DNA from: Bacteroidales bacterium | GTDB taxonomy: Bacteria; Bacteroidota; Bacteroidia; Bacteroidales; UBA4181 | DNA length: 64,000 nt | Reading direction: 5' to 3' | Assembly (NCBI GenBank): GCA_031547085.1 | Contig: JAVBSH010000128.1 | Coordinates: forward strand, 39,632-103,631 | Shown: piece after piece, positions 27,197 through 61,225 of the stretch | How the letters are laid out: each line of letters opens with the position of its first letter | Numbering within the stretch: the stretch's first letter is position 1 | Notes under the pieces: model-generated | The model's database searches: none | What the model saw: only the letters and a program-made list of their open reading frames with translations | What the model was told of the DNA's origin: nothing | Translations under genes and position numbers: made by a program

Positions 27197-28087
27197 CTAA
27201 TACTCCCAAAGGTCTTGTTCCCAGTCGAATATTTCATTTTCGATCCGTTGTGCTTCATACAAGGCATCCAATCCGGTTGCATATTCCTGAATCGACCGGT
27301 TGTTATACACATTGGCTATCTGGTAGATATGTCCGGAATAACGGCACTGCATGAAGAAATCGTCAAAGGATATGTTTTGCGCATCATTGAAACGGTTGAA
27401 TACCGGATGGCGGGCCAGCACGTTACGTGCTTGGGGCATATACACCCACATGGTTTTCATCATATCTAACGCTCCATCGTCGCTGCCGTCGCGTGAATAT
27501 AGCCGGATGGGGCATATCCCGACAACCATACGGTTCAGTACGGAATGTCTCTTGTCAAAAAATATTTTTTCTTTGACCAAGAACCTCTTGACTTCATCGG
27601 TACGGGGAGGCTGGTTCGTTATTTTCCTTACCAGGTTACCATTTTCGTCAGGTACATCAATCGTGTCAATCTTGGCACCTAAATATTGATGAACTTCAGC
27701 CAAACTGATCTTACTGGAAAACTCATTATAATCATCATTAGGATTATACGGGGTAATTTCACCATTTTCGACGCCCTTCAACAGGAGATTTACCAGGTTA
27801 ACACGGCTACCAATGGGAGCTGTGGGGTAATACAACGGCAAATTCTGTTTTTCGCGCAAATCAATCATACGCCAGACAATCTTCTCGAACACCACATCAG
27901 CCTCCCTGACAGGAGCATAAGGGATTGGTTTCTTGAAAGGAATATTCTCCTTCTGGTATACTTCAATCATGTAATCAACCGCCGTAGTGGATGAGTCAAC
28001 TTTGGCTACCGCCGGTTGTTGCGCCGATAACGTACCGGCAAACACCCATAAACCCAATCCTAAAAATATACTACTTATGCGCTTCAT
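27197..28087 (-). CDS. gldN: Gliding motility / T9SS protein GldN (PorN)
   Basis: It is the last gene of the conserved porP-gldK-L-M-N order. Signal peptide MKRISSIFLGLGLWVFAGTLSA|QQ. I preferred the ATG at 28087 over the TTG at 28114, which overlaps gldM. Confidence 0.9.
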   Translation of the reverse strand: MKRISSIFLGLGLWVFAGTLSAQQPAVAKVDSSTTAVDYMIEVYQKENIPFKKPIPYAPVREADVVFEKIVWRMIDLREKQNLPLYYPTAPIGSRVNLVNLLLKGVENGEITPYNPNDDYNEFSSKISLAEVHQYLGAKIDTIDVPDENGNLVRKITNQPPRTDEVKRFLVKEKIFFDKRHSVLNRMVVGICPIRLYSRDGSDDGALDMMKTMWVYMPQARNVLARHPVFNRFNDAQNISFDDFFMQCRYSGHIYQIANVYNNRSIQEYATGLDALYEAQRIENEIFDWEQDLWEY

Positions 28088-28106
28088 AAATATAACTCTA
28101 CTTATT

Positions 28107-29735
28107 TTAATCAACTGTGAAACTAATGGAAGGCAATTCCCGGATCTTATTATCGGGGCCTACCGCTTTAATACCATCAAAAATTACTCTAGAACCTCTT
28201 GTTGCACCTTTAATGATGTCTCTCTGCTTATCAGAAATTTTTGCGCCTTTAACCGGCTCTTCCTGTACAAATTGCCCTTTACTGGCAGAAACGGTGAATT
28301 CAGTAACATTGAATTTCAACTCGAATTCAAAATTTTCCATATCCGCAAGAACAGCAATCTGGGCAGACAATGTACCTTTGTCAATCTTGCCTCCGATTTT
28401 ACCGGCAACTTTGGCAATAGGGCTGGGTACTGTCTTTACGCGGTATTTCATGCGCGTCATCTCGCGGGTTTGCCCTTCGATATTGGCCGATACAATAATG
28501 AACGCTTCACCTTGGGTCGCTGGTTTTGCAATCCAGTCACCTCCCGATCTGACCAACGATCCGTTGGTGATACTTGCCGATATTTTTTCAGCAGGAACGC
28601 CCGAAACTGATATACTGATAGGGTTATCCAAACTCACGTACAATACATTCATTTTAGTGGCCGAAACAACAGCATTGGCTTCGCCTACCTGGTATTCGGA
28701 AGTGAACGGATAACTCGTCATGCCTTCGGGAGTCATCATACGCAACAATCCTTGCAAGGTGTAATTCCCGACAGAGGGCGAACTCTTATAAATAGCCCTG
28801 CCTTTTGCATCGTACGGCAATGCTCTGCCTTCGCCTACCATTTCGTAACCTGAAGCGGTTTTTCTGTATTGACCGAGTATAATTTCAGGCTTCTGCAAAC
28901 TGTCGTAAGCAGCCAGAAGGATACGGGCTTCGAATTCGTTGCCCTTCAGCACATAATTTGATTTGGACAATACAATGGCTTCCATCTTGTTCACCTTGGT
29001 ATCGCTTGCACCAATCTGCGCCAACAGGTTTTGTACTATATCTGCTTCAGCATTCCTTACATCACTTTGCAGTTTCGACATCATGGTGATCACTGCCACC
29101 ATCGGGATGTGTTCAAAATGGCTTGATTCCCAAGTCTGCACTGTACCATCTTTACCTGCCGGAGGAGCGTCGGTATTCAGCGCTTCTTTGATGGCCGTCT
29201 GGATGGAAGGATCGGTTGTCATGGAAAGAAGTTGTTCCCTGTAGGAATCAATCTTACCTTTCAATTCTTCACCCTTCTTTCCTACGATCATAATTTGCGC
29301 CGGCTTATCCAAATTGTCTTTGGAAGCGATCAATGCATCATTGATGTCGTAAGTTGATTTTTTCTCTCGCTTGGAACCGACGATCCATTCGGCAGGAGTG
29401 AGTGCAGGAGCATCGTCGCCATCGCAGTGCTTAACGATTTCCACTTTCAGTTCCTGGATGTCGTACGCCAATTGGTCGGCCATATCCTTTACGCTGTATG
29501 CTTTGTCGCGGAAAGGCCCTACTTTGGCAGCGCTCTTTTCCATTTGTGCATCAAAGATACCGTATGCCGATTCATTCTTGGCGACGAAGTTTGCGGTTGT
29601 CTTAACCAACCCATTGTCTACGAGGACAAAAGCATTGAGAATGTCTGCGGATACATTGAGTGCCAACATTGCTGTGAGCACCAAGTACATCATCCCGATC
29701 ATCTTTTGCCTCGGCGTCTCTTTTCCGTGACCCAT
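28107..29735 (-). CDS. gldM: Gliding motility / T9SS protein GldM (PorM)
   Basis: The N-terminus MGHGKETPRQKMIGMMYLVLTAMLALNVS matches the conserved GldM N-terminal TM motif. 542 aa, mostly periplasmic. Confidence 0.9.
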   Translation of the reverse strand: MGHGKETPRQKMIGMMYLVLTAMLALNVSADILNAFVLVDNGLVKTTANFVAKNESAYGIFDAQMEKSAAKVGPFRDKAYSVKDMADQLAYDIQELKVEIVKHCDGDDAPALTPAEWIVGSKREKKSTYDINDALIASKDNLDKPAQIMIVGKKGEELKGKIDSYREQLLSMTTDPSIQTAIKEALNTDAPPAGKDGTVQTWESSHFEHIPMVAVITMMSKLQSDVRNAEADIVQNLLAQIGASDTKVNKMEAIVLSKSNYVLKGNEFEARILLAAYDSLQKPEIILGQYRKTASGYEMVGEGRALPYDAKGRAIYKSSPSVGNYTLQGLLRMMTPEGMTSYPFTSEYQVGEANAVVSATKMNVLYVSLDNPISISVSGVPAEKISASITNGSLVRSGGDWIAKPATQGEAFIIVSANIEGQTREMTRMKYRVKTVPSPIAKVAGKIGGKIDKGTLSAQIAVLADMENFEFELKFNVTEFTVSASKGQFVQEEPVKGAKISDKQRDIIKGATRGSRVIFDGIKAVGPDNKIRELPSISFTVD

Positions 29736-29771
29736 TTTTTATGATGTTAGTTATAGATTGATTAATACAAA

Positions 29772-30617
29772 TTATCCTCTTACATTCATTGCCGACAACA
29801 TGTTACCATAAATGGTATTCAGGTTGGCAAGGTTACGGTTCAGGTTAGCCATTTCTTCGCGGTAGCGATGTGTCTCGTCAACCGACATCTTCATGTCAGT
29901 TAGCATCTTTTCCATACCGCTATATACAGCCTGCGATTTCTGCAAATGATCGTTGGTTCCGCGCAATTGCAGTTCATATACTGCATTCAGCGCTGAAAGG
30001 TTCTTGTTCATACCTTCCAATTGTGCGGCATATCCCCTGCTACTGTCGCTGATCGTTGCCATGGCTGCCGACGAATTGTTGATAGCGCTGGCCGATTGTT
30101 GCAATCCTGCTGCTGTCTGTTGGAAAGTCATTGCCAATCCGCCAACCGAGTCTGCCGCTGCGCTTACATTCTGTACATATTTGGATGTAGCTGCCGTCGC
30201 TTGCGAAACATCAGATATTCCGACTGCCGTTGCATTTAATTTATCGAATGAAGCATTCAAACTCTTGATGACAGTAGGATCTATTCCTCCCAGACCGCCC
30301 ATCAAATCGTCAAATCTTTCCAATGCTCCGGAACTTCTTGATACTTCCCTGGCTCCTTCCAGTTCGTCAGGATCGGTCATACCGGCTAATTCAGGATATA
30401 CCAATGTCCAGTCCAATTCTTCGTGCAAAGGTTCGAAAGCCGAGAAGAAGAAGATGATCGCTTCCGTACACAACCCCACAGTAAGCATGATACCAGCACC
30501 CGGCCAGTGTTGAATTTTAAACAACGCACCAATAATAACCACTGCTGCTCCGAGACCGTACAATTTGGCCATAAATTTTTTCCAACCGGAACTTTGTGTT
30601 AATTCTCCAAGACCCAT
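29772..30617 (-). CDS. gldL: Gliding motility / T9SS protein GldL (PorL)
   Basis: Two N-terminal TM helices (YGLGAAVVIIGALFKIQHWPGA..., IIFFFSAFEP) followed by a cytoplasmic coiled-coil region, in the expected position between gldK and gldM. Confidence 0.9.
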   Translation of the reverse strand: MGLGELTQSSGWKKFMAKLYGLGAAVVIIGALFKIQHWPGAGIMLTVGLCTEAIIFFFSAFEPLHEELDWTLVYPELAGMTDPDELEGAREVSRSSGALERFDDLMGGLGGIDPTVIKSLNASFDKLNATAVGISDVSQATAATSKYVQNVSAAADSVGGLAMTFQQTAAGLQQSASAINNSSAAMATISDSSRGYAAQLEGMNKNLSALNAVYELQLRGTNDHLQKSQAVYSGMEKMLTDMKMSVDETHRYREEMANLNRNLANLNTIYGNMLSAMNVRG

Positions 30618-30672
30618 AATTATTCTTTTTTAATGTTATTTAAATTTTTACTCTTTTATACTTATTTATGAT

Positions 30673-32016
30673 TTATTTCACTGAATTGCCCAAGAAGGGA
30701 CGCACACACCTGAAACCGATATAAGTTGATGCGGTATCCTGATACTCGTAAGCACGGGTACTTACCTGGAGGTAAAGTTCGATATCCTTCCATGAACCAC
30801 CACGAATGACTTTGCGTTTCATTACTGCGGGTTCATCCGGACGTGCATTGTACTTGTAATCGGGATTCAAGTCATGCGTGAAGCGGGCTGCCGATTCATC
30901 GTAAGCGCTGCTGGTCCATTCGGCCACATTACCTGCCATGTCATACAATCCCCATTCGTTAGGTTCGTATGTACCTACACGTACTGTAAGTACTCCGCCG
31001 TCATCGGCATAATTACCACGCAATGGCTTAAAGTTGGCGAGAAAGCAACCCTGATTGTTACGGGTGTAAGGACCACCCCACGGATATTTTTGATTTTGAA
31101 GGCCGCCACGTGCCGCATATTCCCATTCGGCTTCAGTCGGCAGACGATAATGGTGTACACCCGGATCCCTTGCTTCTATCAAGGCATTGTTTAACAACTC
31201 GGTACGCCAGATGCAGAAAGCAGTTGCCTGTTTCCAGTTAACGCCAACCACCGGGTAGTTGTCATAAGCGACATGCCAGAAGTACATATTGGTCATCGGC
31301 TCGTTATACGAATAAGAGAAGTCGCTGATCCAGCACAAGGTGTCGGGATAAACCGGCACATTATCGCGCATCACGAAAGTCGAACGGTCTTTTACTTCCA
31401 CTTTTTCACCCAATGCATTGAATGCAAATCCTTCATACTTTTTCTTTTCGTAATTATACCTGTTGCGCGGATGGGCTGCTTGCTTCATATCCACCCAATA
31501 GTATTCGTAAATCAATTTACGGGTGTCGATTTCCTTCCGGCCGAAAAAACGTTCGTTTTCGGCAAGATACATTTCTTCCAATGCCTCTTTCTGATCTTCG
31601 TTTTTCCGGGTATCAATTTTGGTATTCCAATTCAAAGGACGCTTGTCTTCATCCAAAGCATCATAGCTGTCGCCTTCTTTCAGGAAGCCGTCAACTCCCG
31701 CCTTTGCCAGGGTACGACGCATGATAGAGTCTCTCACCCAATAAACCCACTGACGATATTCATTATTCGTGATTTCCGTTTCATCCATCCAGAACGCATC
31801 AATAGTCACAGTCTTCGACATATTATTCTGCGCCCACATGGCATCCTGGTCACTTGGCCCGATGGTGAATGCACCCAAAGGAATAAATACCATTCCATAC
31901 GGGTCGGGCTCAAAATAATTACCGCGCCCGGTCACCCCGGTCAATTCACCGCTGGTGCTGCTACCGCAACCGTAAAGAATGAAAAAAAGAAAACTCAAAG
32001 GGATTAATCGCTTCAT
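30673..32016 (-). CDS. gldK: Gliding motility / T9SS lipoprotein GldK (PorK), SUMF1/FGE-fold
   Basis: The ATG at 32016 gives MKRLIPLSFLFFILYGC (lipobox). FGE-type motifs are present (YRLPTEAEWEYAARGG, GNVAEWT, RGGSW). The track start 32064 would overlap porP. Confidence 0.9.
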   Translation of the reverse strand: MKRLIPLSFLFFILYGCGSSTSGELTGVTGRGNYFEPDPYGMVFIPLGAFTIGPSDQDAMWAQNNMSKTVTIDAFWMDETEITNNEYRQWVYWVRDSIMRRTLAKAGVDGFLKEGDSYDALDEDKRPLNWNTKIDTRKNEDQKEALEEMYLAENERFFGRKEIDTRKLIYEYYWVDMKQAAHPRNRYNYEKKKYEGFAFNALGEKVEVKDRSTFVMRDNVPVYPDTLCWISDFSYSYNEPMTNMYFWHVAYDNYPVVGVNWKQATAFCIWRTELLNNALIEARDPGVHHYRLPTEAEWEYAARGGLQNQKYPWGGPYTRNNQGCFLANFKPLRGNYADDGGVLTVRVGTYEPNEWGLYDMAGNVAEWTSSAYDESAARFTHDLNPDYKYNARPDEPAVMKRKVIRGGSWKDIELYLQVSTRAYEYQDTASTYIGFRCVRPFLGNSVK

Positions 32017-32047
32017 ATTGTCGAACATTAATACTTTCTTACTTTTT

Positions 32048-32983
32048 TTATAAAAACCGTACACTTTTATACTTTTTAACTACTTTTTCTTTAACTAAAC
32101 TGAAACAATAACTGAGGGTTACTTCATGTGATCCCCCGGGTGCATATTGCCTGACGCTTGTATAAGAATAATCGAACGAATATCCTATTTTCAAGCCGTT
32201 GAATATATCAACCCCGATCATGGCAATCACCGCATCATTTAACCGGTATCCGATTCCGCCCCAAACCTTTTTGTTGTACATGACGTTCACGTTCGCTGTA
32301 AGCTGGGAGGCTGTTCCGTCGGAATAGGCCATCAACGATGGTGTCATTTCCCATGCAGGATTTTGGAGCGGGAGCAAACAACCTGCTGTGGCGTAATAAT
32401 GCCTTTTCAGAGTGTAATTTGTTGCTTCGTATTTCAAACTGGGTTCGAGAAGGTGCGTGGTGGATAATCCCAGATACACCTTTTCGGCACGGTAAAATAC
32501 TCCCAATCCCATATCAAATCCCATAATGCTTTCATTTTCTTTTGGGATAGAAAGATCGTTATTCGGATCGCCGCCGGGTATCGACCAAATGGCCGACAGG
32601 GCTTTGTTCAGGAACATCCCGCTGACACCAATTCCCAATTTGCCGGGACCGACATTCATCCGGTAAGCGTAATCCAAGCCGACACTAACATTTTGGTCGA
32701 ACCCGAGTTCGTCGCTCATCAGCGTGAGACCCACCCCATGATTGACGCCAAATAACTTAAACGGCGCATTGGCCGTAAAGACAGACGTTACCGGCGCTCC
32801 ATCCAAACCAACCCACTGCTGGCGATGAACAGCCGAGAGACAAATGGCGTCGTGGCTGCCAGCGTAGCCGGGATTGACCGCCATGTGATTGAACATATAC
32901 TGGCTGTACTGCGGATCCTGTTGGGCTATGACTTCAAAGACCATGGTAAAGCCGCACAAAAGACCGAATAGCAATCTCCTCAT
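32048..32983 (-). CDS. porP: PorP/SprF family type IX secretion system membrane protein
   Basis: Signal ...FEVIA|QQ, then the signature DPQYSQYMFNHMAVNPGYAG. beta-barrel-like. Start taken at 32983 (MRRLLFGLL); 33016 is also possible. Confidence 0.85.
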   Translation of the reverse strand: MRRLLFGLLCGFTMVFEVIAQQDPQYSQYMFNHMAVNPGYAGSHDAICLSAVHRQQWVGLDGAPVTSVFTANAPFKLFGVNHGVGLTLMSDELGFDQNVSVGLDYAYRMNVGPGKLGIGVSGMFLNKALSAIWSIPGGDPNNDLSIPKENESIMGFDMGLGVFYRAEKVYLGLSTTHLLEPSLKYEATNYTLKRHYYATAGCLLPLQNPAWEMTPSLMAYSDGTASQLTANVNVMYNKKVWGGIGYRLNDAVIAMIGVDIFNGLKIGYSFDYSYTSVRQYAPGGSHEVTLSYCFSLVKEKVVKKYKSVRFL

Positions 32984-33202
32984 TCCTTTATCGTAATTCT
33001 TATAGAATATTGACATTTACAAAAAAACGTAAAATAACTAAAAAAATTGTTTACGAACAAAAATGCCGTTCGGAATTTTGTTTGCGCATTAACATACCAT
33101 TATACTGAATAAGGAAGCAAATGGTTACATTTTTTGTGGAAGATTTCATATTTTTTTAAATAAAAATACATAAATCGCTGATTGTCAATTAGAATTATTT
33201 TC

Positions 33203-42634: not shown

Positions 42635-43045
42635 TCAAGACAATAATACGGATAAAAATCCTATGCCAAGAACTATACCTATACGGATAAAATTCTCTTT
42701 TGCAAAACTAGGCGATTTTCTGCGTTTCCACCATAAAGCGGATAAGACAAGTGCCATGTATACCAATCCTGCAAAAAAGATGTACCATCCACTCGTGCCA
42801 TAATGTAATGCAATGAATACTACGCCCATTGTATAAGTTGTAATACTCATTCCGACACATATTTTTGCCAGCGTCATCGGCAGTCCTGTACGTTTTATTC
42901 CAAACAGCGGATACAGGATATACAGAAAAAATAACCCAATCAAGACAATAAATTGAAGTATGGCATAACCGGGTATTTGATTACATATCTGTAATATTCT
43001 TGCCAAAATGAATATACAACCTATTGCGATTTCAAACTTTTTCAT
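42635..43045 (-). CDS. Hypothetical small membrane protein (about 4 TM)
   Basis: 136 aa, almost entirely hydrophobic helices. No family recognised. Confidence 0.5.
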   Translation of the reverse strand: MKKFEIAIGCIFILARILQICNQIPGYAILQFIVLIGLFFLYILYPLFGIKRTGLPMTLAKICVGMSITTYTMGVVFIALHYGTSGWYIFFAGLVYMALVLSALWWKRRKSPSFAKENFIRIGIVLGIGFLSVLLS

Positions 43046-43180
43046 CTGTTTATAATTTTATCTTTTAAGGTCAGATGGAATTAGCTTCGCTGAGCTCCAC
43101 TACGTTCCGGTTCGCCATGGATAATCATTACGATTGGTGAACAGTAAGGTTCATGGCTATTTCATATCAGATATCTTTTT
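43046..43180 (-). repeat. Conserved intercistronic element, copy B (with ~32-nt insertion)
   Basis: It has the same blocks as 19631-19733, plus an insert TAGCTTCGCTGAGCTCCACTACGTTCCGGTTC. Its distal end supplies the last codons and the stop of ORF 43157..43714. Confidence 0.6.
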
Positions 43181-43714
43181 CGTGAATTGCTGCCATAGAA
43201 ACATGTTACTCCCACTGATGTTGATCTCTTTACCATTGTTGCGCAATTCAGTCAAGATATTGTTCAGCAGTTCGTAAGTTTTTATGTCTTTGATAAAGAA
43301 CTGGAACGTTTTGCCGGGGTCATTATCCAATACCAAATAGTTACCCGCTCCTTTCTTCCTGTCGCCATTTCCTAAAAAGCGTCCGGATATACCAGCCATT
43401 TCCTTATAGTCTCCGAAAGAAAACCGGATAGACTTGATGTCATTGCAATCATAAGTTTTTTCAATGGTTCCTTTCTTTGAGACGATATGAATAACATTGC
43501 CAAAAATAACCAATTTACCGGTTACATAGTACCAGGGACATATAAAAGACACTGCCCATAACAGAACACTGCATGCCATCAATACCAAAAAAGGATGGTA
43601 GGGACGAAAGCCATAATAAAGAATCAGCCAGAGGAAGACGCTAAATATTGAAATCCGGCTCAGCCAAAAGAAAATATTGTACTTTACTGTGGAAAACTCG
43701 AGATGAATCTGCAT
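43157..43714 (-). CDS. Hypothetical membrane protein (2-3 N-terminal TM + soluble C-terminal domain)
   Basis: 185 aa. No family recognised. Co-directional with, and 26 nt downstream of, the plug-CTD paralog. Confidence 0.5.
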   Translation of the reverse strand: MQIHLEFSTVKYNIFFWLSRISIFSVFLWLILYYGFRPYHPFLVLMACSVLLWAVSFICPWYYVTGKLVIFGNVIHIVSKKGTIEKTYDCNDIKSIRFSFGDYKEMAGISGRFLGNGDRKKGAGNYLVLDNDPGKTFQFFIKDIKTYELLNNILTELRNNGKEINISGSNMFLWQQFTKKISDMK

Positions 43715-43740
43715 TAAAAAGTATCTGGAAGCTCAAACTG

Positions 43741-44607
43741 TCATTTATTCTTCACTCCTTTTACCATTTTTGTCTGTTTGCCATTATTTACGCTAAAGAA
43801 ATATACACCTGCACGCAAATGTTCCAAAGGAATGGTTTCAATCGGGTTAACGATTTTTTTGGTGTGTACAATAACGCCGTCTTCGGAAAGCACTCTCAGT
43901 ATGCAATTTTCAGCACCTGTGAGCTGCAACGTTCCGGCGAAAGGATTGGGGTAGATTTTCAGGCCGGGGAAAGGATCTTCCGTTTCAGCGAGGTCAACAT
44001 CAGTTTCGATAGCAGGGGCATCTTCGTTTTCCGGTTGTGTAGTCACCAAATCTGACTCTGATGGATATTCTGTTTCGGTCGTGACTGTATTTGTTTCGGA
44101 TTTAACAGAGTATTTGCCGCCTGATTTTGTGACAATGCTAATTACTCCGCCTGCTGCGCCGCGTTCCCCAAATATTGCCAATGCTGAGGCTTCTTTAAAT
44201 ATTGAAAAACTTTTGATGTCCTCGACTTGCAAACGCGTTAAATCGTCTGAAGAACTTTCCATCCCATCAATCAGGATCAGCGGTTGAACGGTTGAAGTTT
44301 CATGAGTACTAGTGAGAAAAATCTGTGTTCCGTCGGTTGTAGTTTGATCAACGGGCCGGGACGAGCTTATTCCCGGGACTCTCCCCCAAAACGTTTGGGT
44401 TAAATTGGATGTCGGCACTTCCAAAACAGGTGCCTTTATTGCTTGGCCGGGGGAAACACTGTTGCTATTTTCATCAACAACAGTGGCATTTTCCTGCGCA
44501 AGAAGTGAAAATGCACAAAATGATAGCACGATTACAGGAATGATGATTGTTTCCAATCTCTTAAAAAGCGCGGTTGCAACAACGAAAGAAAAGAATTGTG
44601 TACTCAT
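43741..44607 (-). CDS. TonB-dependent-receptor plug-like domain protein with T9SS type A C-terminal sorting domain (paralog 1)
   Basis: Signal ...FSLLA|QE. Plug-like block FWGRVPGI...LILIDGMESS...EDIKSFSIFKEASALAIFGERGAAGGVISIVTKSGG. An acidic linker follows. CTD is LKIYPNPFAGTLQLTGAENCILRVLSEDGVIVHTKKIV...LRAGVYFFSVNNGKQTKMVKGVK. There is no beta-barrel. Confidence 0.65.
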   Translation of the reverse strand: MSTQFFSFVVATALFKRLETIIIPVIVLSFCAFSLLAQENATVVDENSNSVSPGQAIKAPVLEVPTSNLTQTFWGRVPGISSSRPVDQTTTDGTQIFLTSTHETSTVQPLILIDGMESSSDDLTRLQVEDIKSFSIFKEASALAIFGERGAAGGVISIVTKSGGKYSVKSETNTVTTETEYPSESDLVTTQPENEDAPAIETDVDLAETEDPFPGLKIYPNPFAGTLQLTGAENCILRVLSEDGVIVHTKKIVNPIETIPLEHLRAGVYFFSVNNGKQTKMVKGVKNK

Positions 44608-44647
44608 GATTCAATATTTTGGTGGATAATGAATGTTTCGAAAACTG

Positions 44648-45508
44648 TTATTTACTTTTTATGCCTTTTACCATTTTTGTCTGTTTGCCATTATTTACGC
44701 TAAAGAAATATACACCTGCACGCAAATGTTCCAAAGGAATGGTTTCGATCGGGTTAACGAGTTTTTGAGTGTGTACAACAACACCGTCTTCGGAAAGCAC
44801 CCTCAGTATACAGTTTTCAGCACCTGTGAGCTGCAATGTTCCGGAGAAAGGATTGGGGTATATCTTCAGGTCGGGGAAAGAATCATCCGTTTCGGTAGGG
44901 TCAATATCGGTTTTGATAGCAGAAACAGTTTCATTTTCCAATTGCGTAGTGTCTAAATCTGGCGCTGCTAGGCTTTCCATTTCGGTTGTGGCTGTATCTG
45001 TTTCGGATTCAACCGAGATTTTGCCGCCATTTTTAGTGGTAATAAGAACAACCCCGTTAGCACCGCGTTCCCCGTACATTGCCGTTGCCGAAGCATCTTT
45101 GAGTATTGAAAAACTTTCGACATCTTCAGGACGTACATGATCAATAGCGCCTTCAACCCCATCAATCAGTACCAATGCTGATGATAATAATGCTGATGAT
45201 GAACAACTACAGTTGATATAAACCTCTGTGCCGTCAGGTTTAGTTTTGTTAGCAGCTTGCATCGAAATTATTCCTGCAACTCTTCCCCCTAACAGTTGGG
45301 ATACAGAGGATATCGGCACTTTCAAACCTGGTGCCGTTATTATCTTTTCGGAAGGAGCAGCGTTGTCATTCCCATTGAGAACATCGGCATTTTCCTGCGC
45401 AAAGAGCGAAAATGCACAAAATGACAACACGATTACAGGAAAGATGGCTTTTTTTGTTGTTTTAAAAAGTCTGGTCATCACAATGAAAGGAAGAACATGT
45501 GTACTCAT
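44648..45508 (-). CDS. TonB-dependent-receptor plug-like domain protein with T9SS type A C-terminal sorting domain (paralog 2)
   Basis: Signal ...FSLFA|QE. Plug-like block LGGRVAGI...LVLIDGVEGA...EDVESFSILKDASATAMYGERGANGVVLITTKNGG. The CTD is nearly identical to that of paralog 1. Confidence 0.65.
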   Translation of the reverse strand: MSTHVLPFIVMTRLFKTTKKAIFPVIVLSFCAFSLFAQENADVLNGNDNAAPSEKIITAPGLKVPISSVSQLLGGRVAGIISMQAANKTKPDGTEVYINCSCSSSALLSSALVLIDGVEGAIDHVRPEDVESFSILKDASATAMYGERGANGVVLITTKNGGKISVESETDTATTEMESLAAPDLDTTQLENETVSAIKTDIDPTETDDSFPDLKIYPNPFSGTLQLTGAENCILRVLSEDGVVVHTQKLVNPIETIPLEHLRAGVYFFSVNNGKQTKMVKGIKSK

Positions 45509-45837
45509 GACGAAAGATTTTAGTGGAATAGGAATGTTTCAAAGTTATAAAATTATTTTAAATATTTTGTCATTTCTTTGAAAAAAATAAATGATCGTGA
45601 GATCGGTTTTGAATTTCTATTTTGTGTCATTGTGGCTAACAGGTTGACACAAAGATACTAAAACAATACGCAACAATTTTTTTATTTTACATGTCCCTGA
45701 GTGAAGATTGTCGAACGATCAAAAGGGAAGTGCCTGTTTTGACAGAAAGCTTTGTTCAGTTGGATGAATATTACTACTTTTGCGATGGAATTCGATGATC
45801 GTTTGGCGGTTGTCAAATTCGTTTTAAGAATAAAAAA

Positions 45838-46230: not shown

Positions 46231-46299
46231 TTACGAGTTACAAAGTTACAAGTTACGAGTCCGCGTAACTTGTAACTTGTAACTTGTAACTTGTAACTC
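46231..46299. repeat. Palindromic heptamer array (AAGTTAC x3 / GTAACTT x5)
   Basis: GAGTTAC-A-AAGTTAC-AAGTTAC-GAGTCCGC-GTAACTT x4-GTAACTC. AGTTACAAGTTACG (46244-46257) pairs perfectly with CGTAACTTGTAACT (46264-46277). It lies between the stop of 45838..46227 and the ATG of the cyclase gene. Confidence 0.85.
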
Positions 46300-46307
46300 A
46301 ATTTCAA

Positions 46308-47411
46308 ATGAAACTTGTTTTTTTGACACTCTGCTTGTGTGTTTCCCTGTTTACCACCTGTTCGTCGTGCAACCGGAGTAATAGGGAGTCGAAATCGAAA
46401 AATACGACGGAACAGCAACGCCCGCGTCAACAGAGGGCACGGATTGCCATTTCGTCGCCAAGAAATAATGAAAAGCAGGCACTGGGCTCCGCCATTATTT
46501 TGTCTGTCCAAGTAAAAGATACTTCCGACCCCATAGATTCGCTCCGCTGGTTCATTGGCGGCAGATGGTTGAAAACGACCAAGGGTGGGGATGTTACTTG
46601 GAACACATCGGGGCAAACTACGGGTACACACCGTATTGAGGCTGTGGCATATTATGTTTCGGGACAGCATGACATGGTGTCGACAAGTGTCGTTTTGTTG
46701 GCTGACAAGGCGCCTAAACAATACACATATAAAGTGGTGCAGACCTATCCGCACGACAGGAAAGCCTATACCCAGGGATTGGTTTTCGATAATGGTTTCC
46801 TGTACGAAAGTACTGGCCTGAAAGGCGAATCATCGCTACGTAAGGTCAATATCCAGACAGGCGAACCTATTCAAGTGACCAATATGCCGGGCGATATGTT
46901 TGGTGAAGGGCTGGCATTGGTGGATAATAAATTGATCCAATTAACTTGGCAAAATCAGGTGGCCTTTATATACCGGAAAGATGATTTCAAGGTGCTGGAT
47001 AAGATCAATTACTCGATGCGCGAAGGCTGGGGATTGGTTTTCGATGGCACGCACCTGCTGATGACCGACGGCTCGGCAACCCTTTATTCCCTGGATAAGG
47101 AATATCTCACGGAAGTACGCCGGTTGGAAGTGTGCGACAACAAAGGATTGGTGAGGGAATTGAACGAGTTGGAATATATCAACGGGGAGTTGTGGGCCAA
47201 TGTTTACCAAACAGACGACATCCTGCGCATCGATCCGGCCACAGGTGTTGTACTGGGATGTATCAATATGGAGGGATTGCTGAAACAAAGCGACAGGGAT
47301 AACGATACCAATGTGCTGAATGGCATTGCCTATGACGAGAAAACAGGAAAGATATATGTTACAGGGAAAAACTGGCCGAAACTGTTCGAAATACAGGTGG
47401 TAGAGAAGTAA
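46308..47411 (+). CDS. Glutaminyl-peptide cyclotransferase (beta-propeller, plant/bacterial type) lipoprotein with N-terminal extra domain
   Basis: Lipobox MKLVFLTLCLCVSLFTTC. YKVVQTYPHDRKAYTQGLVFDNGFLYESTGLKGESSLRKVNIQTGE and the following propeller repeats match type I glutamine cyclotransferase. About 130 aa of an extra Ig-like region precede it. Confidence 0.85.
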   Translation: MKLVFLTLCLCVSLFTTCSSCNRSNRESKSKNTTEQQRPRQQRARIAISSPRNNEKQALGSAIILSVQVKDTSDPIDSLRWFIGGRWLKTTKGGDVTWNTSGQTTGTHRIEAVAYYVSGQHDMVSTSVVLLADKAPKQYTYKVVQTYPHDRKAYTQGLVFDNGFLYESTGLKGESSLRKVNIQTGEPIQVTNMPGDMFGEGLALVDNKLIQLTWQNQVAFIYRKDDFKVLDKINYSMREGWGLVFDGTHLLMTDGSATLYSLDKEYLTEVRRLEVCDNKGLVRELNELEYINGELWANVYQTDDILRIDPATGVVLGCINMEGLLKQSDRDNDTNVLNGIAYDEKTGKIYVTGKNWPKLFEIQVVEK

Positions 47412-54474: not shown

Positions 54475-56601
54475 TTACGGCATTCTGGCCAAACCTTCCC
54501 AGTGTACATCCCAATTACCGTCCTTCGGAAAACCGGGAGTGTCGGTTTCGCAACCGTCCCAACCGGCGCACATCATCGCCACGGTGGTAAGCAAGCCGCC
54601 GTTGCCGGGAAGGTAGATACGCAGGCGGGCATCCTGGTAATTATGTCCGTTCACTAAATAGGTATTGGTCCGTTTGTCCATCAGCAGAGCGCCAACCGCT
54701 TTTTCGGGTTCGCCGAGTCGGGCCGCACTCATGGCAGTCATCGGGTAATCCCAACCCCATGTGTGGTCCCAGTTCCAACGATCCCATATCCAATGGAGCG
54801 TATTTTGCATTACTTCGGCACGCATCAGCCTGCTTTGCGGGAAGATGCCCAGGGCACCCAGTACGGCCGGGTGGTCGGATGTGAAACGTACATCGCTGTA
54901 CGTTTCCGGGGCTGTTTCGGCAGCCAGGTACAAACCGTCCTTTTCGGCCAACGGAGACAGTTTATTGATCACCTCATCCCATTGCGGATTCCGATTCTGC
55001 CCGGTACGTTCGCGCCATTGCTGCGCCACTCCCAACGCATAATGCCAGTATGAAAGTTCGAATGGAGGGTTGGTTGTTTCAGCTGGGCGTAATGTTTCCT
55101 GCGCCGGGATGATACCTTTCAGTACATAACGGTCGCCTTGTTCGTCATACGTGGCAAATGAAGCCATAAACCCGGCTGTTTCATCTACCAGTCGTTTGTA
55201 TTTGTTAAGTACTTCCGGTGTGGGATTGTTACGGTAGATAAGTTCGGCCATGTAGATAAAATGCGGTTGCTGCCAGATGAGGAACGAACCAACGCCTGAA
55301 GGCGCTTCCAATGCCGACGGGTCAGTCATCTTCATCCATCGTATACCCTTAAAGCCTTGCCTTTCGGCGATGGATTTGGCGATGGGATAGGCCGTGTTGT
55401 ACCAGTCCATGCTGCGTTCGAGCAGGTCGGTGCGGTTCCATAGCGCAAAATGAACAGCATGCCACCAATGCATTTCCAGGTGGAACTTGCCAAACCAACT
55501 GTTGTAGGTGAGCCCTGTTTCCTGTGGAGGCATCGATCCGGCACACTGTATGGCCATGAGGTATTGCGACAATACCACGCGGCGTTCCAATTCAGAGGCT
55601 TCCTTTGCCTTGCAAGCCGAGAAATCAATTGCCCCGCCCCGTTGCCAGAAGCTTTGCCAATACGCGGACGATGCCACTAATGCATGATTGAATGAAGGGA
55701 GCGGATCGGAAGTCGGTTTCTCTGTAAAGAAACAAACCACGGAAAAATCATCGCTTTCGGGCGAGAGTACAAAGTGATGTTTTGCCTTTTCGGCGATTGT
55801 GGCTTTACCTGTCCAATTCACGGTTACATGATACGTTGTATTGTCTAATTGTCGTTCGAAGGTGATACCCTGTTCCGTCCGGTTCACGATTGTGGAGGAA
55901 TGTTTTTCGGGGTTGTCCCAATCGCAGGCATCATCGGTATGTTTGCCGGTGGGGTAGGGGAAGCGAAAATTCAGTTTCAGGCGGCCGTCCTTGATTAATG
56001 CCGATCTGATGTGTGCTGCCATGGCGTCTTTCTGCGGATGGCAGACTGTTTGTACATCCACGGAAATGTTATCCAATTCGAAATGACTTTCTATCGTGCC
56101 GTCCCATAATTTTAGTTCCTGCCGGATGCTTTTCAACTCATCGGCATTCACCTTGCTGCCATCGGTATGCGTCAGTTCCAGGCCGATGATGCCAAGGTGC
56201 AGGCGGTGCGGATTAGCACGGTACCAGTCAGCAGCCTCCTTCGGTCGTCCGGGTTCATTGAACTGCACTGCATAAGGCTCTTCCCACCCACGGAAGTTGT
56301 AATTTTTCAGGGTTTCCTCGAATTCGTAGTTCTCCGGGTTGGTGAATTTATGCCATCCCCATTGCGACTGGGTACCTAACGGAACTCCTGCGCTGTATAA
56401 CTCGGGAAATGTCTGCAATCCCGTAGCATCCACCGTATAGGCAAATTCGCCGTTGCCTACCGATAGCGACGATAATTCATCAAATTGGTTTATTACCGGG
56501 CTGTTCCGGTTAACCAGCGCCTGGCGGTCTATTTTTACAGGTTCTTTTGTGTTACAAGCAGCAAAGAGAACCAGTGCGCTACAATAAAGCCATTGTTTCA
56601 T
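54475..56601 (-). CDS. Putative glycoside hydrolase lipoprotein ((alpha/alpha)6-like), family not assigned
   Basis: Lipobox MKQWLYCSALVLFAAC. 708 aa. Trp/His-rich helical repeats (FGKFHLEMHWWHAVHFALWN, YWHYALGVAQQW) resemble six-hairpin glycosidases. Its context is pectin/RG genes. Family membership cannot be settled by eye. Confidence 0.45.
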   Translation of the reverse strand: MKQWLYCSALVLFAACNTKEPVKIDRQALVNRNSPVINQFDELSSLSVGNGEFAYTVDATGLQTFPELYSAGVPLGTQSQWGWHKFTNPENYEFEETLKNYNFRGWEEPYAVQFNEPGRPKEAADWYRANPHRLHLGIIGLELTHTDGSKVNADELKSIRQELKLWDGTIESHFELDNISVDVQTVCHPQKDAMAAHIRSALIKDGRLKLNFRFPYPTGKHTDDACDWDNPEKHSSTIVNRTEQGITFERQLDNTTYHVTVNWTGKATIAEKAKHHFVLSPESDDFSVVCFFTEKPTSDPLPSFNHALVASSAYWQSFWQRGGAIDFSACKAKEASELERRVVLSQYLMAIQCAGSMPPQETGLTYNSWFGKFHLEMHWWHAVHFALWNRTDLLERSMDWYNTAYPIAKSIAERQGFKGIRWMKMTDPSALEAPSGVGSFLIWQQPHFIYMAELIYRNNPTPEVLNKYKRLVDETAGFMASFATYDEQGDRYVLKGIIPAQETLRPAETTNPPFELSYWHYALGVAQQWRERTGQNRNPQWDEVINKLSPLAEKDGLYLAAETAPETYSDVRFTSDHPAVLGALGIFPQSRLMRAEVMQNTLHWIWDRWNWDHTWGWDYPMTAMSAARLGEPEKAVGALLMDKRTNTYLVNGHNYQDARLRIYLPGNGGLLTTVAMMCAGWDGCETDTPGFPKDGNWDVHWEGLARMP

Positions 56602-58110: not shown

Positions 58111-58896
58111 TTATTCCAAACCGAGTTTCCTGAAATCTTCTATTTCCTTTTGCATCTTTTCCAACTCTCCGTCTAACTTTTTACTATACTTTTTAAGTGA
58201 TGCTTCTGTAACTTCGGTTCCTTCAAAACAAAGCATATTGTCTAATTCAGTTTCTTCTATAAGTTTGAAAATCTCTTCTTGAGGATTCTCCAACCTGCTA
58301 TTGATAAGTACTAACTCAATCCTGATCCTCCACAGTCTATATAAAAGTTTAGCATGGAGACCAATATGCTGATATGTCTTGAAAGCGGTAGGCATGATGA
58401 AGGCTCCGCATGCATGATACTGTCCTGCTGCGTTTTGAAATGACCCCATTTCGCTTGCATACCCCATAATGATCGGGTAAGCAAAGGTATTCATCACATC
58501 TATCATTCGTTCAATTTCTTCTCTAACCTTTTTTCTGACTTCTTTTTTGTCTTTAATGCCATCTTCAAACAGGGACTTGAAGATCGAAAATAAGGTATCT
58601 GCTTGAGGAGAACCCCATCCTTTGGGTATTGAAAAATCAGGGGATATCTTGTCCCCATGCGCTAAGACATCAATGGCTGATAACGGAGATTTATTCAATT
58701 CAAGCTTAAACCGCTCGATATTTTCAATCGTCATTTTTGCTTTTTCCCACTCGCTCGATTCGATTATTGAACGTCTTGCATAAAAGACCTGTGCCAGGAT
58801 AAAACATAAAGACACCAAAGTGCCGATATAATAAAGATTCGGTAGCCAAACCTTAACCTCACCATACCATTTTTGCTTTTGCTTTTTGTTTTTCAT
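58111..58896 (-). CDS. Hypothetical N-terminally membrane-anchored helical protein, AT-rich gene
   Basis: The ATG at 58896 gives a Lys-rich start MKNKKQKQKWYGEVK plus one TM (LPNLYYIGTLVSLCFILAQVF). The remainder is soluble and helical with a C-terminal coiled coil. No family confidently recognised. Confidence 0.5.
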   Translation of the reverse strand: MKNKKQKQKWYGEVKVWLPNLYYIGTLVSLCFILAQVFYARRSIIESSEWEKAKMTIENIERFKLELNKSPLSAIDVLAHGDKISPDFSIPKGWGSPQADTLFSIFKSLFEDGIKDKKEVRKKVREEIERMIDVMNTFAYPIIMGYASEMGSFQNAAGQYHACGAFIMPTAFKTYQHIGLHAKLLYRLWRIRIELVLINSRLENPQEEIFKLIEETELDNMLCFEGTEVTEASLKKYSKKLDGELEKMQKEIEDFRKLGLE

Positions 58897-59009
58897 AGAA
58901 TGACATATAAGAAATGTCGACAAATATAAAACATAACTTTAATAAAACAGAAGCAACTGTTTTATACTTGCATTTTATACTTTAATCTGATATTTCAGAA
59001 ATTAACCGG

Positions 59010-60179
59010 TCATTTACCCAATTCCAAGCATCCCATGATGAATGGCCCCGTAGCTTTTGTATCGTTATCGCGGATCTTTTCGCTGATGTAATATTCGAAA
59101 CTGCCGTCGCGGTATGGTTTTCCGCCCAAGCCTCCCACCGAGCAGCATTGTGTGAGGTTTAGCGTTCCATCTTCATTTACTTTGATCAATTTGGTGGTGA
59201 GTCCATTGAAAGCTTTTTCGGCCACTTTTCGGTATTTCTTCGGGAGATATCCCTTGTTGACAGCCTTGGCGTATGAATACATGAACATTGACGATGCCGA
59301 TGCTTCCAGATAGTTGCCCTTGCGTGTCCCCTGGTCGATCACCTGATACCAAAGGCCGGTTTTATCCTGGTATTTGGGCAAAACCGAAGCCAGTTTATTG
59401 ATGATGTCGATAACATCCTTGCGATGCGGATGATTTTCGGGCACAAAATCGAGGATGTCGACCATTGCCATGAAATACCAGCCAATAGCGCGTCCCCAAA
59501 AGTTGGGCGATTGCCCGGTGGTTTTGTTTGCCCACTGTTGTTGGCGGCTTTCATCGTATGCATGGTATAATAGGCCTGTTTTTGGGTCGACCGTATGTTT
59601 GTAGGTAACCAATACCTCATGAATTGCCTTGTCTATTAAATCGGGACGATGATACAATTTGCCGTATTGCGCCATATAAGGCCCGGCCATATAAATGCCA
59701 TCCAACCAAATCTGGTGCGGATATATTTTCTTGTGCCAGAACACGCTGTCGGTCGTCTGCGGATGTTTGTCCAACTGGCTCAGCAGGGTATCCATGGTTA
59801 TCCGGAATTTCTGTTGCCCGGAGTAGTCGTAAATTTCAAACAGTATCTTTCCTGCATTGATGAAATCGATGTTGTAATCGGTGGTTTTGTAATGAAGGAT
59901 AGAGCCATCGGGTTGTACCATGTGGTCGGCCCAACGGAATACATAATCATAATATTTGTTGTCGCCTGTATCATGCCATATTTTGAGCAGGGCGCAACAT
60001 CCCAATCCTTGTGGATAACTCCATACATAGCGTGTGCCATAGTCGAGTTGCCATGCTTCCGGAAACCGTTTCATCTCCGAATCGGCAAAACGCACCGACC
60101 ATTTGTCGTTTTTGGATTGCGAAAAACCTGTTTGAAGAAATAGAACGAAACAACAAAAAAGGATACCTGCTTTTTTCAT
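59010..60179 (-). CDS. GH88/GH105 family unsaturated glycuronyl (rhamnogalacturonyl) hydrolase
   Basis: Signal ...TGFS|QS. WSYPQGLGCCALLKIW, WLDGIYMAGPYMAQYG and FWGRAIGWYFMA match the YteR/UGL (alpha/alpha)6 fold. The PL11 neighbour favours GH105. Confidence 0.8.
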   Translation of the reverse strand: MKKAGILFCCFVLFLQTGFSQSKNDKWSVRFADSEMKRFPEAWQLDYGTRYVWSYPQGLGCCALLKIWHDTGDNKYYDYVFRWADHMVQPDGSILHYKTTDYNIDFINAGKILFEIYDYSGQQKFRITMDTLLSQLDKHPQTTDSVFWHKKIYPHQIWLDGIYMAGPYMAQYGKLYHRPDLIDKAIHEVLVTYKHTVDPKTGLLYHAYDESRQQQWANKTTGQSPNFWGRAIGWYFMAMVDILDFVPENHPHRKDVIDIINKLASVLPKYQDKTGLWYQVIDQGTRKGNYLEASASSMFMYSYAKAVNKGYLPKKYRKVAEKAFNGLTTKLIKVNEDGTLNLTQCCSVGGLGGKPYRDGSFEYYISEKIRDNDTKATGPFIMGCLELGK

Positions 60180-61196: not shown

Positions 61197-61225
61197 ACCT
61201 ACCGGGTCTTCCAGACCCAGCAGGT
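61197..61225 (-). terminator. 29-nt hairpin element (third full copy) abutting the PL11 stop codon; probable terminator
   Basis: The minus strand reads ACCTGCTGGGTCT-GGA-AGACCCGGTAGGT followed by TTTTGAGTTT. It matches the arms at 8293-8366 except for two loop bases. Confidence 0.65.

Follow-up and report, generated by a model that had tools for sequence, protein, structure and literature searches.

The plug domain is a textbook case of a domain found only inside its barrel. The closest described counterparts of plugA and plugB, the two proteins analyzed here, are the SusC/RagA transporters (RagA 6SLI, the dextran SusC 8AA4 and the levan SusC 8A9Y), with which they share about 100 residues of homology, the SusC signature and a superposable core. 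Unlike these transporters, plugA and plugB lack the 22-strand barrel, the N-terminal extension, the TonB box and the SusD partner, and their plug is fused to an acidic linker and a type IX secretion (T9SS) C-terminal domain (CTD). In this respect they resemble T9SS type A cargo such as RgpB, mirolase and NucA: they begin with a putative Sec signal peptide (Q at +1), followed by a passenger, a linker and an Ig-like CTD of about 75 residues with a KIYPNPF-type motif, and T9SS genes are found in the same genome. However, the passenger is a transporter plug of about 100 residues, with no enzyme or adhesin repeat, and the CTD is far better conserved than the passenger.

The locus lies in a 64-kb window (the whole stretch of DNA analyzed) from the genome of an uncultured member of the Bacteroidales. 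The four open reading frames that were listed in the initial annotation are all present as described, on the minus strand. The features of the window are as follows.

45540..45547, minus strand: candidate -7 promoter motif TAACTTTG, a match to TAnnTTTG found by motif scan
44648..45508, minus strand: plugA (P0001, 286 aa), from its ORF and domain matches
45023..45184, minus strand: plug core of plugA (residues 109-162), beta-beta-alpha-beta, from AF2 and Foldseek
44651..44875, minus strand: type A CTD of plugA (residues 212-286), from PF18962, TIGR04183, AF2 and Foldseek
43741..44607, minus strand: plugB (P0002, 288 aa), tandem paralog with the same architecture, from its ORF and domain matches
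~44116-44286, minus strand: plug core of plugB
~43744-43968, minus strand: CTD of plugB
43157..43714, minus strand: 185-aa ORFan, from ORF and hydropathy, with no family match
43046..43156, minus strand: intergenic repeat element 5' of the 136-aa gene, with a second copy at 19631-19730
42635..43045, minus strand: gene for a 136-aa membrane protein, from ORF and hydropathy, with no family match
46308-47411: glutaminyl cyclase gene
27197..33016, minus strand: T9SS core operon porP-K-L-M-N, from Pfam and TIGR03513

The plugA protein comprises a signal peptide (approximately residues 1-37, with predicted cleavage between A37 and Q38), a variable pre-plug segment (38-62), a SusC-type plug (63-163), an acidic linker (164-211) and the type A CTD (212-286). 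The linkers of both paralogs span 48 residues and contain 14 D+E versus 1 K+R. The Plug profile (PF07715, Pfam curated cut-off 23.9 bits) scores 34.3 bits in plugA and 30.9 bits in plugB, over positions 20-107 of 107. The 31-residue SusC signature (TIGR04057, cut-off 46.2 bits) is found above its cut-off in plugA (66.2 bits) and below it in plugB (32.3 bits). The SusC/RagA model (TIGR04056) gives whole-protein scores of 118 and 76 bits, respectively, both under its cut-off of 368 bits, and the alignment is limited to approximately positions 99-229 of the 981 in the model (108-229 for plugA). In addition, plugA aligns to residues 111-214 of RagA (6sli, E 4e-13), and the plug region is about 50% identical to the plugs of many SusC proteins. 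The assignment of the middle domain to the SusC-type plugs is borne out by sequence and, for its C-terminal core, also by predicted structure; the long motif string quoted in its support was given one residue out of register for plugA.

Neither protein contains a beta-barrel, as had been proposed. When five full-length SusC proteins were used as tblastn queries against the 64-kb window, only the two plug regions were matched and no barrel segment, ruling out a disrupted SusC gene at this locus. Furthermore, plugA and plugB are not pieces of a broken SusC, because about 19 intact, diverged relatives have the same architecture. The CarboxypepD_reg N-terminal extension has no Pfam match in either protein, and there is no susD-like gene beside them. 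The combination of a plug with a T9SS CTD is real and rare, and neither this architecture (Plug with Por_Secre_tail) nor M56 with Plug was described in the literature that we searched.

Neither the TonB box nor the first ~19 positions of the Pfam profile are covered by the plug match. Homology starts about 20 alignment columns downstream of the SusC consensus 'LDEVVVvGlG' (DEVVVxGxG), and the TonB-box pattern is matched by no family member. Two strings considered as a TonB-box relic ('KIITAPG' and 'VKIVPFG') were rejected, as their position in the alignment corresponds to the segment that follows the TonB box in SusC. These results bear on earlier suggestions that the free plug is a decoy that competes for TonB, or that it mimics SusC to absorb phages or bacteriocins. 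The plug matches real SusC plugs (~100-105 bits) just as well as it matches members of its own family, and fast evolution and tandem duplication would fit an arms race. However, a TonB decoy is unsupported because no TonB box is kept and export would take the protein out of the periplasm, the compartment of TonB. A SusC plug is buried inside its barrel, and receptor-binding proteins contact external loops; the mimic of a phage or colicin receptor is therefore unsupported as well, the plug not being the exposed part of SusC. PADLOC and PHROGs gave no match. We regard both versions of this idea as very unlikely.

The tails of both proteins were described as type A Por CTDs, and this holds for profiles and fold. 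Por_Secre_tail (PF18962, cut-off 27 bits) scores 33.2 bits in plugA and 32.6 bits in plugB, the NCBIfam model TIGR04183 (cut-off 23 bits) scores 33.9 and 33.3 bits, and in both paralogs the matches end 2-5 residues before the C-terminus. In the AF2 model, the CTD of plugA is an Ig-like beta-sandwich (pLDDT 81-91) that Foldseek matches to the solved CTDs of PorZ (5m11), NucA (8glk_D, TM 0.81), mirolase (8qb1) and RgpB (7pq4); 8glk_D is a substrate CTD bound in a T9SS complex. Hydropathy indicates one hydrophobic segment in each protein, at the N-terminus, and the A-Q pair at the putative signal-peptidase site is invariant in 17/17 aligned members. The invariant A-Q is consistent with the Q-rule of Bacteroidetes (PMC5837995, PMC10653852), and the window also contains the glutaminyl cyclase gene. 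The genes of the T9SS core operon are:

32048-33016, minus strand: porP/sprF, from Pfam PorP_SprF
30673-32064, minus strand: porK/gldK, from Pfam FGE-sulfatase
29772-30617, minus strand: porL/gldL, from TIGR03513 (199 bits versus a cut-off of 68.3)
28107-29735, minus strand: porM/gldM, from Pfam GldM domains 1-4
27197-28114, minus strand: porN/gldN, from Pfam GldN

The presence of this operon in the window makes the export of plugA and plugB plausible, and porP-K-L-M-N would be expected to be the machinery that exports the two CTD proteins.

Residues 109-162 of plugA were modeled by AF2 with pLDDT 73-82, with an alignment of 17 sequences as well as with a SusC-rich alignment of 113 sequences, whereas residues 53-108, the N-terminal half of the plug, remained below 50 in both models. 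Foldseek superposes the core on the SusC/RagA plugs 8aa4_A, 8a9y_A and 6sml_B with an RMSD of 1.5-2.0 A over 53 columns. Eight of the plug-core residues are invariant in the family (L112, L114, D116, E119, G146, G152, V153 and T158). Within the plug, only the core is predicted to fold when no barrel surrounds it; the low pLDDT of the N-terminal half may be due to the absence of the barrel and not to real disorder. In BtuB, a mechanically strong plug subdomain keeps its fold while the N-terminal half is extracted (2017, PMC5413942). That subdomain occupies the same position in the plug, a stretch of ~64 residues that starts with the LIDG strand and ends with the ...TTK/R strand, and parallels both the AF2 result and the boundaries of the repeat unit described below. 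The BtuB result was obtained inside the barrel, whereas autonomy outside a barrel is here only predicted.

The initial annotation had started from the premise that a plug functions only inside a barrel, which is not borne out by an exhaustive profile search: 127 of the 134 top non-family representatives are barrel-less and have at least three plug-core modules. Many barrel-less proteins carry 3-8 tandem modules, the repeat unit being the same core as in plugA, and some end in a T9SS CTD. Over half of the barrel-less module proteins (43/77) are of the BlaR1/M56 type and 9/77 are joined to TonB_C; one M56 plug-module gene follows a BlaI repressor gene. An example is Ancylomarina WP_154200160.1, annotated only as 'M56 family metallopeptidase'. 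Such arrays share with plugA and plugB the plug-core module of about 55-70 residues, the SusC signature and the lack of a barrel, but their 3-8 modules stand behind a 4-TM zinc-protease sensor, beside a BlaI gene, and are presumably periplasmic. plugA and plugB, on the other hand, have one module each and no Peptidase_M56 match, and are predicted to be secreted cargo. The M56 plug arrays are related to the M56-TonB_C fusions, still uncharacterised, that B. thetaiotaomicron encodes (bioRxiv 10.1101/2023.07.07.548152). Other proteins have a signal peptide, plug-core module(s), a type A CTD and no barrel, as plugA and plugB do, namely the metagenomic P0125 and P0176 and Bernardetia sp. WP_291728111.1 (P0200; Cytophagales), an independent combination of a signal peptide, three modules and a CTD. 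They differ in having 3-5 modules, in some cases with a TonB-box string per unit ('EVTVIGYG' three times in P0125), in their unrelated CTDs and linkers, and in belonging to a different order (Cytophagales). plugA and plugB are thus members of a larger set of proteins with plug modules but no barrel that had gone unrecognised.

This wider set raises the alternative of a periplasmic role, with the plug binding, for example, TonB-family or T9SS components and the CTD used for docking or turnover. Most barrel-less plug modules are in predicted periplasmic M56 tails, and both the fusions to TonB_C and the gene that follows the BlaI repressor gene point in this direction. As seven M56 plus module proteins also end in a CTD, the CTD is not always the mark of a simple secreted cargo. 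However, plugA and plugB have neither an M56 anchor nor a TonB box, whereas they do have a putative cleavable signal peptide, a canonical type A CTD and an acidic stalk similar to cargo linkers. We therefore consider a periplasmic role improbable.

The two paralogs are 60% identical overall, with identity distributed unevenly. The CTD is 91% identical in amino acids and 92% in nucleotides (dN/dS 0.17), whereas the N-terminal half of the plug is only 33% identical; dN/dS is 0.52 for the plug and approximately 1.0 for the pre-plug. These comparisons indicate a fast-evolving passenger and a conserved CTD under strong purifying selection, although the passenger values of 0.5-1.0 would also be compatible with weak constraint. 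The close family consists of about 19 clusters, all singletons and all from metagenome or MAG sequences. Its intact members are 43-60% identical and have a signal peptide, one or two plug modules, an acidic linker and a CTD; the number of modules and of linkers changes in frame (module duplications in P0003-5). One member, P0018, is from an ant fungus garden sample (PMC7381635). The names of neighbouring SusC matches give a hint, and only a hint, of a termite-gut origin. A scan of 185,579 species-representative genomes with one CTD peptide pattern ('LKIYPNPF') detected no family member and returned one full SusC and unrelated CTD cargo, and a single-protein scan of genome contigs had no match. 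The scan of metagenome contigs was dominated by ordinary SusC plugs and is uninformative on synteny. Genomic neighbours differ in every relative examined, and the analysis brought up no conserved neighbour, partner or ligand.

Several of these features could be explained if the genes were an evolutionary by-product, in which a 5' SusC fragment became fused to CTD-encoding sequence and the resulting near-neutral ORFs, with a plug part lacking a specific function, spread within one insect- or gut-associated Bacteroidales lineage. The passenger dN/dS, the tiny family of singleton clusters, the changing genomic neighbours, the lower GC content of the locus (0.406 versus 0.448) and the adjoining ORFan are all in line with this origin. 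Nevertheless, the ~19 members keep the order of their parts and the invariant plug-core residues, the module duplications stay in frame, the CTD is under strong purifying selection, and analogous multi-module proteins with a CTD exist in another order (Bernardetia). We consider a by-product an unlikely explanation.

The four genes had also been proposed to form a cluster, and in a functional version of this idea the two plug proteins would cooperate with the membrane proteins of 185 and 136 aa. The genes are co-directional, the first three are tightly spaced (plugB starts 40 bp past the plugA stop and the 185-aa ORF 26 bp past plugB), and no terminator-like site occurs within the cluster on the coding strand. 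By hydropathy, the 185-aa protein has two predicted TM segments at its N-terminus followed by a soluble tail, and the 136-aa protein has 4-5 predicted TM segments. However, the 185-aa protein is an ORFan, with no family match in Pfam, NCBIfam, PADLOC or PHROG and no homolog found in a database of 5.8 billion clusters; the 136-aa protein has no family match in Pfam or NCBIfam. By tblastn, neither small protein is present in any of 41 related loci, and the relatives have unrelated neighbours. An identical 136-aa protein is encoded on a Logan contig with aroE-rnpA-hemD, which breaks 118 bp upstream of it. Finally, the 136-aa gene has an upstream element of its own, a 111-bp repeat. A four-gene unit is therefore unsupported, a conserved four-gene operon is ruled out by the ORFan and the unrelated neighbours in relatives, and a functional four-gene system is extremely unlikely. 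Beside plugA and plugB are the ORFan, the small membrane protein gene, aroE, a BT0820-type HAD phosphatase and the glutaminyl cyclase gene.

The element upstream of the 136-aa gene, previously described as a conserved intercistronic element, is a genuine repeat with two copies, at 43046-43156 and at 19631-19730. Conservation extends over about 80 nt, the copy at 43046-43156 has a 31-nt insertion, and both copies stop just before an ATGAAA start, that at 19631-19730 upstream of another gene. It folds no better than shuffled sequences (RNA fold z-score only -1.08) and is probably a shared promoter or leader. A duplicated 5' leader is common to plugA and plugB, and plugB is without a TAnnTTTG motif of its own. 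TAACTTTG matches this Bacteroidetes -7 motif and ends 32 nt upstream of the plugA ATG, but it is only a candidate promoter of plugA, and weak evidence for one, because TAnnTTTG shows no enrichment across the window (59 occurrences versus 53 expected). Sigma-70 and terminator scans were at chance level, Rfam had no match within the 64 kb, and no convincing invertible-promoter inverted repeats were detected upstream of plugA.

Taken together, we consider it somewhat probable that plugA and plugB are tandem-duplicated, T9SS-exported proteins that display a fast-evolving, plug-derived binding or scaffold module, and are neither a transport gate nor a TonB decoy. The Sec signal peptide would be cut before the invariant Gln and the protein would cross the periplasm, where its type A CTD would be recognised by the T9SS encoded about 10 kb away, leading to release or anchoring at the cell surface. 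There, the C-terminal plug core of about 55 residues, with the SusC signature, would fold alone, outside any barrel, and be held away from the CTD by the acidic stalk of about 48 residues, with the N-terminal half of the plug as a flexible, fast-evolving appendage. The core may be a small module for interaction or scaffolding, with the rapid turnover typical of surface proteins. Many barrel-less proteins of Bacteroidota reuse it as tandem 'beads', in BlaR1/M56 sensor tails and in multi-module T9SS cargo such as Bernardetia WP_291728111.1. The analysis shows the architecture of plugA and plugB, their homology, the lack of a barrel and a TonB box, the T9SS genes, the family and the wider class, whereas we infer that they are exported, that the core is autonomous and that it binds or acts as a scaffold. 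Since there is no barrel, and no TonB outside the cell, the plug cannot be a transport gate.

The least probable reading that we considered is a split transporter, in which the secreted plug enters from outside, or gates, a plug-less TonB-receptor-like barrel. Barrels of this kind occur in Bacteroidota: the T9SS component PorF/PG0534 has been described as plug-less (PMC8564354), and a plug is often missing from 'Type S' SusC-like transporters (bioRxiv 10.1101/2025.11.13.688124). If this reading were true, the plug core would represent an autonomous domain that has gone unrecognised and that, in BlaR1-type sensors as well as in T9SS cargo, docks into outer-membrane barrels or senses them.

As long as no ligand or phenotype has been found, plugA and plugB taken alone offer a modest pay-off. 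They present a plug sequence freed from its barrel and put on the type IX secretion pathway, and thus provide a natural way of testing whether the mechanically strong subdomain of the plug can fold autonomously. More broadly, they point to a systematic mis-annotation, as databases label barrel-less plug-module proteins generically, or wrongly as SusC receptors, and to an unexplored class of envelope sensors that combine M56 with plug arrays and, in some cases, also with TonB_C or a CTD.

Four ORFs, all co-directional on the minus strand, make up the interval 42635-45508:

44648-45508, minus strand: plugA (P0001), 286 aa
43741-44607, minus strand: plugB (P0002), 288 aa
43157-43714, minus strand: 185-aa protein with two transmembrane segments by hydropathy
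42635-43045, minus strand: 136-aa membrane protein with four or five transmembrane segments by hydropathy

P0001 and P0002 are paralogs (60% identity, 40 bp between the genes). Both exceed the curated Pfam cut-offs for the TonB-dependent-receptor Plug (34.3 and 30.9 bits, respectively, cut-off 23.9) and for Por_Secre_tail (33.2 and 32.6 bits, cut-off 27), and both pass the NCBIfam model of the type A T9SS sorting domain. They cover positions ~99-229 of the 981 in the NCBIfam SusC/RagA model, P0001 also scores above the cut-off for the 31-residue SusC signature (66 versus 46 bits), and a PDB sequence search pairs its residues 62-165 with RagA 111-214 (E 4e-13). Each protein has a single hydrophobic segment, at the N-terminus, and none elsewhere. 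The plug is joined to the C-terminal sorting domain (CTD) by a 48-residue linker that contains 14 aspartates and glutamates and one lysine or arginine. The initial annotation had described a plug and a T9SS CTD without a barrel in two tandem paralogs; this architecture is confirmed, as is the plug relationship of the middle domain, while its first interpretation is supported in part.

Only one part of the plug is modeled with confidence. With a 17-member family alignment, AF2 is confident only in the CTD and in residues ~110-160 (beta-beta-alpha-beta); an alignment of 113 sequences, many of them true SusC plugs, gives pLDDT values of 74-82 for residues 109-162 and below 50 for residues 55-108. 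The confident 53 residues, the plug core, fit the corresponding cores of solved SusC/RagA plugs with an RMSD of 1.5-2.0 A, and the structure matches of the core model are exclusively TBDT plugs. In BtuB, plug residues 73-136 form a 'mechanically recalcitrant' C-terminal subdomain that stays folded while TonB pulls out the N-terminal 50 residues (PMC5413942); the plug core of P0001 matches this subdomain by position. Conservation between the paralogs divides along the same split, with amino acid identities of 44% in the pre-plug region, 33% in the N-terminal half of the plug, 57% in the plug core and 91% in the CTD (92% at the nucleotide level). The dN/dS ratio is ~1.0 for the pre-plug region, 0.52 for the whole plug and 0.17 for the CTD. 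A near-neutral chimera would agree with the first two of these values and sits poorly with the third, and we consider it unlikely.

The initial annotation had allowed that the genes might be fragments of a disrupted SusC gene. We searched the 64-kb window by tblastn with five full-length SusC proteins (1012-1150 aa); the only matches are the two plug regions, with no remnant of a barrel or of an N-terminal extension. Diverged relatives are all intact and share the architecture, and a disrupted gene is thus ruled out. Alignment with 100 SusC fragments places the start of homology in P0001 ~20 columns downstream of the SusC consensus 'LDEVVVvGlG', and no family member matches the TonB-box pattern. 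The plug region of P0001 scores ~100-105 bits against genuine SusC plugs, equal to its scores against its own family, and 'SGEPGKNxSEFWxRGIGTFG', a string typical of one SusC subclade, is kept in the relatives P0003 and P0008. Given these equal scores and the retained string, the family looks like a captured SusC 5' region, taken without the N-terminal extension and TonB box and placed before the linker and CTD. The host belongs to an uncultured Bacteroidales lineage: no other protein is more than 86% identical to its SecDF, and all named relatives are 'Bacteroidales bacterium' MAGs. An ant fungus garden is the source of one relative with three modules, and several of the nearest SusC matches are labeled termite gut.

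A database of 5.8 billion protein clusters yielded ~17 close relatives with the same Plug and CTD annotation, and an exhaustive profile search added two (P0124 and P0134). All are intact, are 43-60% identical to P0001, and are built alike: signal peptide, plug, acidic linker, CTD. Three relatives have two plug modules (P0003-5) and three have a duplicated acidic linker (P0011, P0013, and P0014). P0134 (403 aa, L124 5370-6581) has an unrelated N-terminal region of ~240 residues followed by one plug core and a family-type CTD, showing that other passengers, too, can carry the core and CTD cassette. Roughly half of the family members (alignment A1) have Cys motifs, NC[GS]C or NCxxCN, in place of the SusC 'IRG' strand region ('IRGxG'). 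The forms seen are NCSC, NCGC, NCPIC, and NCAGC, and the site in P0001 is at residues ~99-103 (45199-45213). The paired cysteines may form a disulfide or a metal site. A Bernardetia protein has 'IRC' at this position.

A scan of other large ORFs revealed a complete T9SS core operon at 27197-33016 (minus strand), ~10 kb from the plug genes:

32048-33016, minus strand: porP/sprF (Pfam PorP_SprF)
30673-32064, minus strand: porK/gldK (FGE-sulfatase fold)
29772-30617, minus strand: porL/gldL (TIGR03513, 199 bits, cut-off 68.3)
28107-29735, minus strand: porM/gldM (all four GldM domains)
27197-28114, minus strand: porN/gldN (Pfam GldN)

The CTD of P0001 is modeled with pLDDT 81-91, and in the PDB it most resembles other T9SS CTDs, those of PorZ, NucA (bound in the T9SS complex; TM 0.81), mirolase, and RgpB. 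The signal peptide closes with an Ala-Gln invariant in 17/17 aligned family members, corresponding to the Bacteroidetes 'Q-rule' of signal peptidase I substrates (PMC5837995, PMC10653852). Based on the operon, the CTD fold matches and the invariant Ala-Gln, the prediction that P0001 and P0002 are exported by the T9SS is well supported bioinformatically. A periplasmic role seems quite improbable. A glutaminyl cyclase gene (46308-47411, plus strand; Glu_cyclase_2, 311 bits; N-terminal Big_7 Ig domain) adjoins these two Q-rule substrates, probably by coincidence; enzymes of this class cyclize the N-terminal Gln of secreted Bacteroidetes proteins.

The proteins would be exported by Sec and cleaved before the Gln, after which the T9SS would export them and remove the CTD. 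An acidic stalk would then carry the folded plug core, displayed or released, and the N-terminal half of the plug would be a flexible, variable region; the core could be a module for binding or a scaffold, with rapid turnover. As the barrel is absent, a role as a transport gate is excluded. The TonB decoy suggested initially is unlikely because there is no TonB box and the protein would end up in the wrong compartment; a decoy or receptor mimic is very unlikely. That P0001 and P0002 act in trans as plugs for plug-less barrels (PorF, Type S transporters), an idea taken from literature hooks alone, has only the slimmest probability.

The initial annotation also treated the four genes as a functional unit, which is not borne out. 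They are adjacent and co-directional, yet the 185-aa protein is an ORFan with no homolog among the 5.8 billion protein clusters, none of 41 related loci encodes either small protein, and the neighbors differ in every relative (restriction-modification genes, an AI-2E transporter, an AAA-ATPase, pyruvate:ferredoxin oxidoreductase subunits, and a chloride channel). A 111-bp element (43046-43156, minus strand) lies upstream of the 136-aa gene, and a second copy of it (19631-19730, minus strand) precedes another gene. The copies share ~80 conserved nt, one has a 31-nt insertion, and each stops just before an ATGAAA start. The element matches nothing in Rfam, does not fold significantly as RNA, and is probably a shared promoter or leader; its repetition suggests that the 136-aa gene has a promoter or leader of its own. 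A four-gene system is accordingly highly improbable. GC content is 0.406 in the locus versus 0.448 in the window, and is lowest in the two small genes (0.384 and 0.358). An independent assembly of the same strain (L122, a 2916-bp Logan SRR23967709 contig) carries the 136-aa gene, aroE, rnpA, and hemD and ends 118 bp upstream of the 136-aa gene. This break falls within the repeated element, which may mean that the plug locus assembles poorly or differs from strain to strain.

The second copy of the element sits between tandem paralog genes for proteins of 264 and 265 aa, which look like small outer-membrane proteins. These and other features of the window are:

21733-22233, minus strand: ECF sigma factor, PG0214/GFO_1088-type
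21209-21736, minus strand: 175-aa ORF, no assignment
20596-21126, minus strand: GFO_1090-family protein
19731-20528 and 18836-19630, minus strand: the 264/265-aa paralogs, with signal peptides and no family match
46243-46306: long imperfect hairpin made of heptamer tandem repeats (GTTACAA / TTGTAAC), between the genes for a BT0820-type HAD phosphatase and the glutaminyl cyclase
54475-56601, minus strand: 708-aa ORF, no Pfam or NCBIfam match
58111-58923, minus strand: 270-aa ORF, no Pfam or NCBIfam match

The last two are surrounded by polysaccharide-degradation genes (GH88, 59010-60179; rhamnogalacturonan lyase, 61225-63084).

Searching the family profile against 1.84 billion representative proteins yielded, outside the family, proteins that match it in several stretches. 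The best 150 include 134 from outside the family, and 127 of these have at least three plug-core modules. A Pfam census of 77 of them (alignment A3) found Plug in 74, Peptidase_M56 (BlaR1) in 43, CarboxypepD_reg in 17, TonB_C in nine, Por_Secre_tail in seven, and a barrel family in none. The nine TonB_C proteins, often with the domain behind M56, combine in one polypeptide TonB_C and Plug, the partners of the TonB-box interaction. The Ancylomarina isolate protein WP_154200160.1 has M56 and four plug modules, and its gene overlaps the upstream gene of a BlaI-type repressor (Penicillinase_R; both genes at L123 4616-7211, GCA_009669305.1). This pair keeps the classic BlaI/BlaR1 arrangement, but the plug array replaces the penicillin-binding sensor domain. 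With a generic CTD model, 14/136 representatives end in a T9SS CTD: two family members, five multi-module cargo proteins, and seven with M56, modules, and CTD (P0143, P0182, P0244, P0219, P0253, P0178, and P0201). These seven are topologically puzzling, as they bring together an inner-membrane anchor and an outer-membrane secretion tag. Bernardetia sp. WP_291728111.1 is a complete cargo protein with a signal peptide, three modules, and a CTD, and the multi-module cargo protein P0125 has a SusC-style TonB-box string in 3/5 units. Array proteins carry generic source names ('M56 family metallopeptidase', 'TonB-dependent receptor plug domain-containing protein') or a wrong one ('SusC/RagA subfamily outer membrane receptor'), and NCBIfam has no dedicated model for them. 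Our literature search found no description of Plug and CTD or of M56 and Plug architectures, only related M56-TonB_C fusions mentioned as uncharacterized. P0001 and P0002 are thus predicted T9SS cargo whose passenger derives from a transporter plug, and the more interesting by-product is the barrel-less plug-core arrays of BlaR1-like sensors, a set that is large and undescribed.
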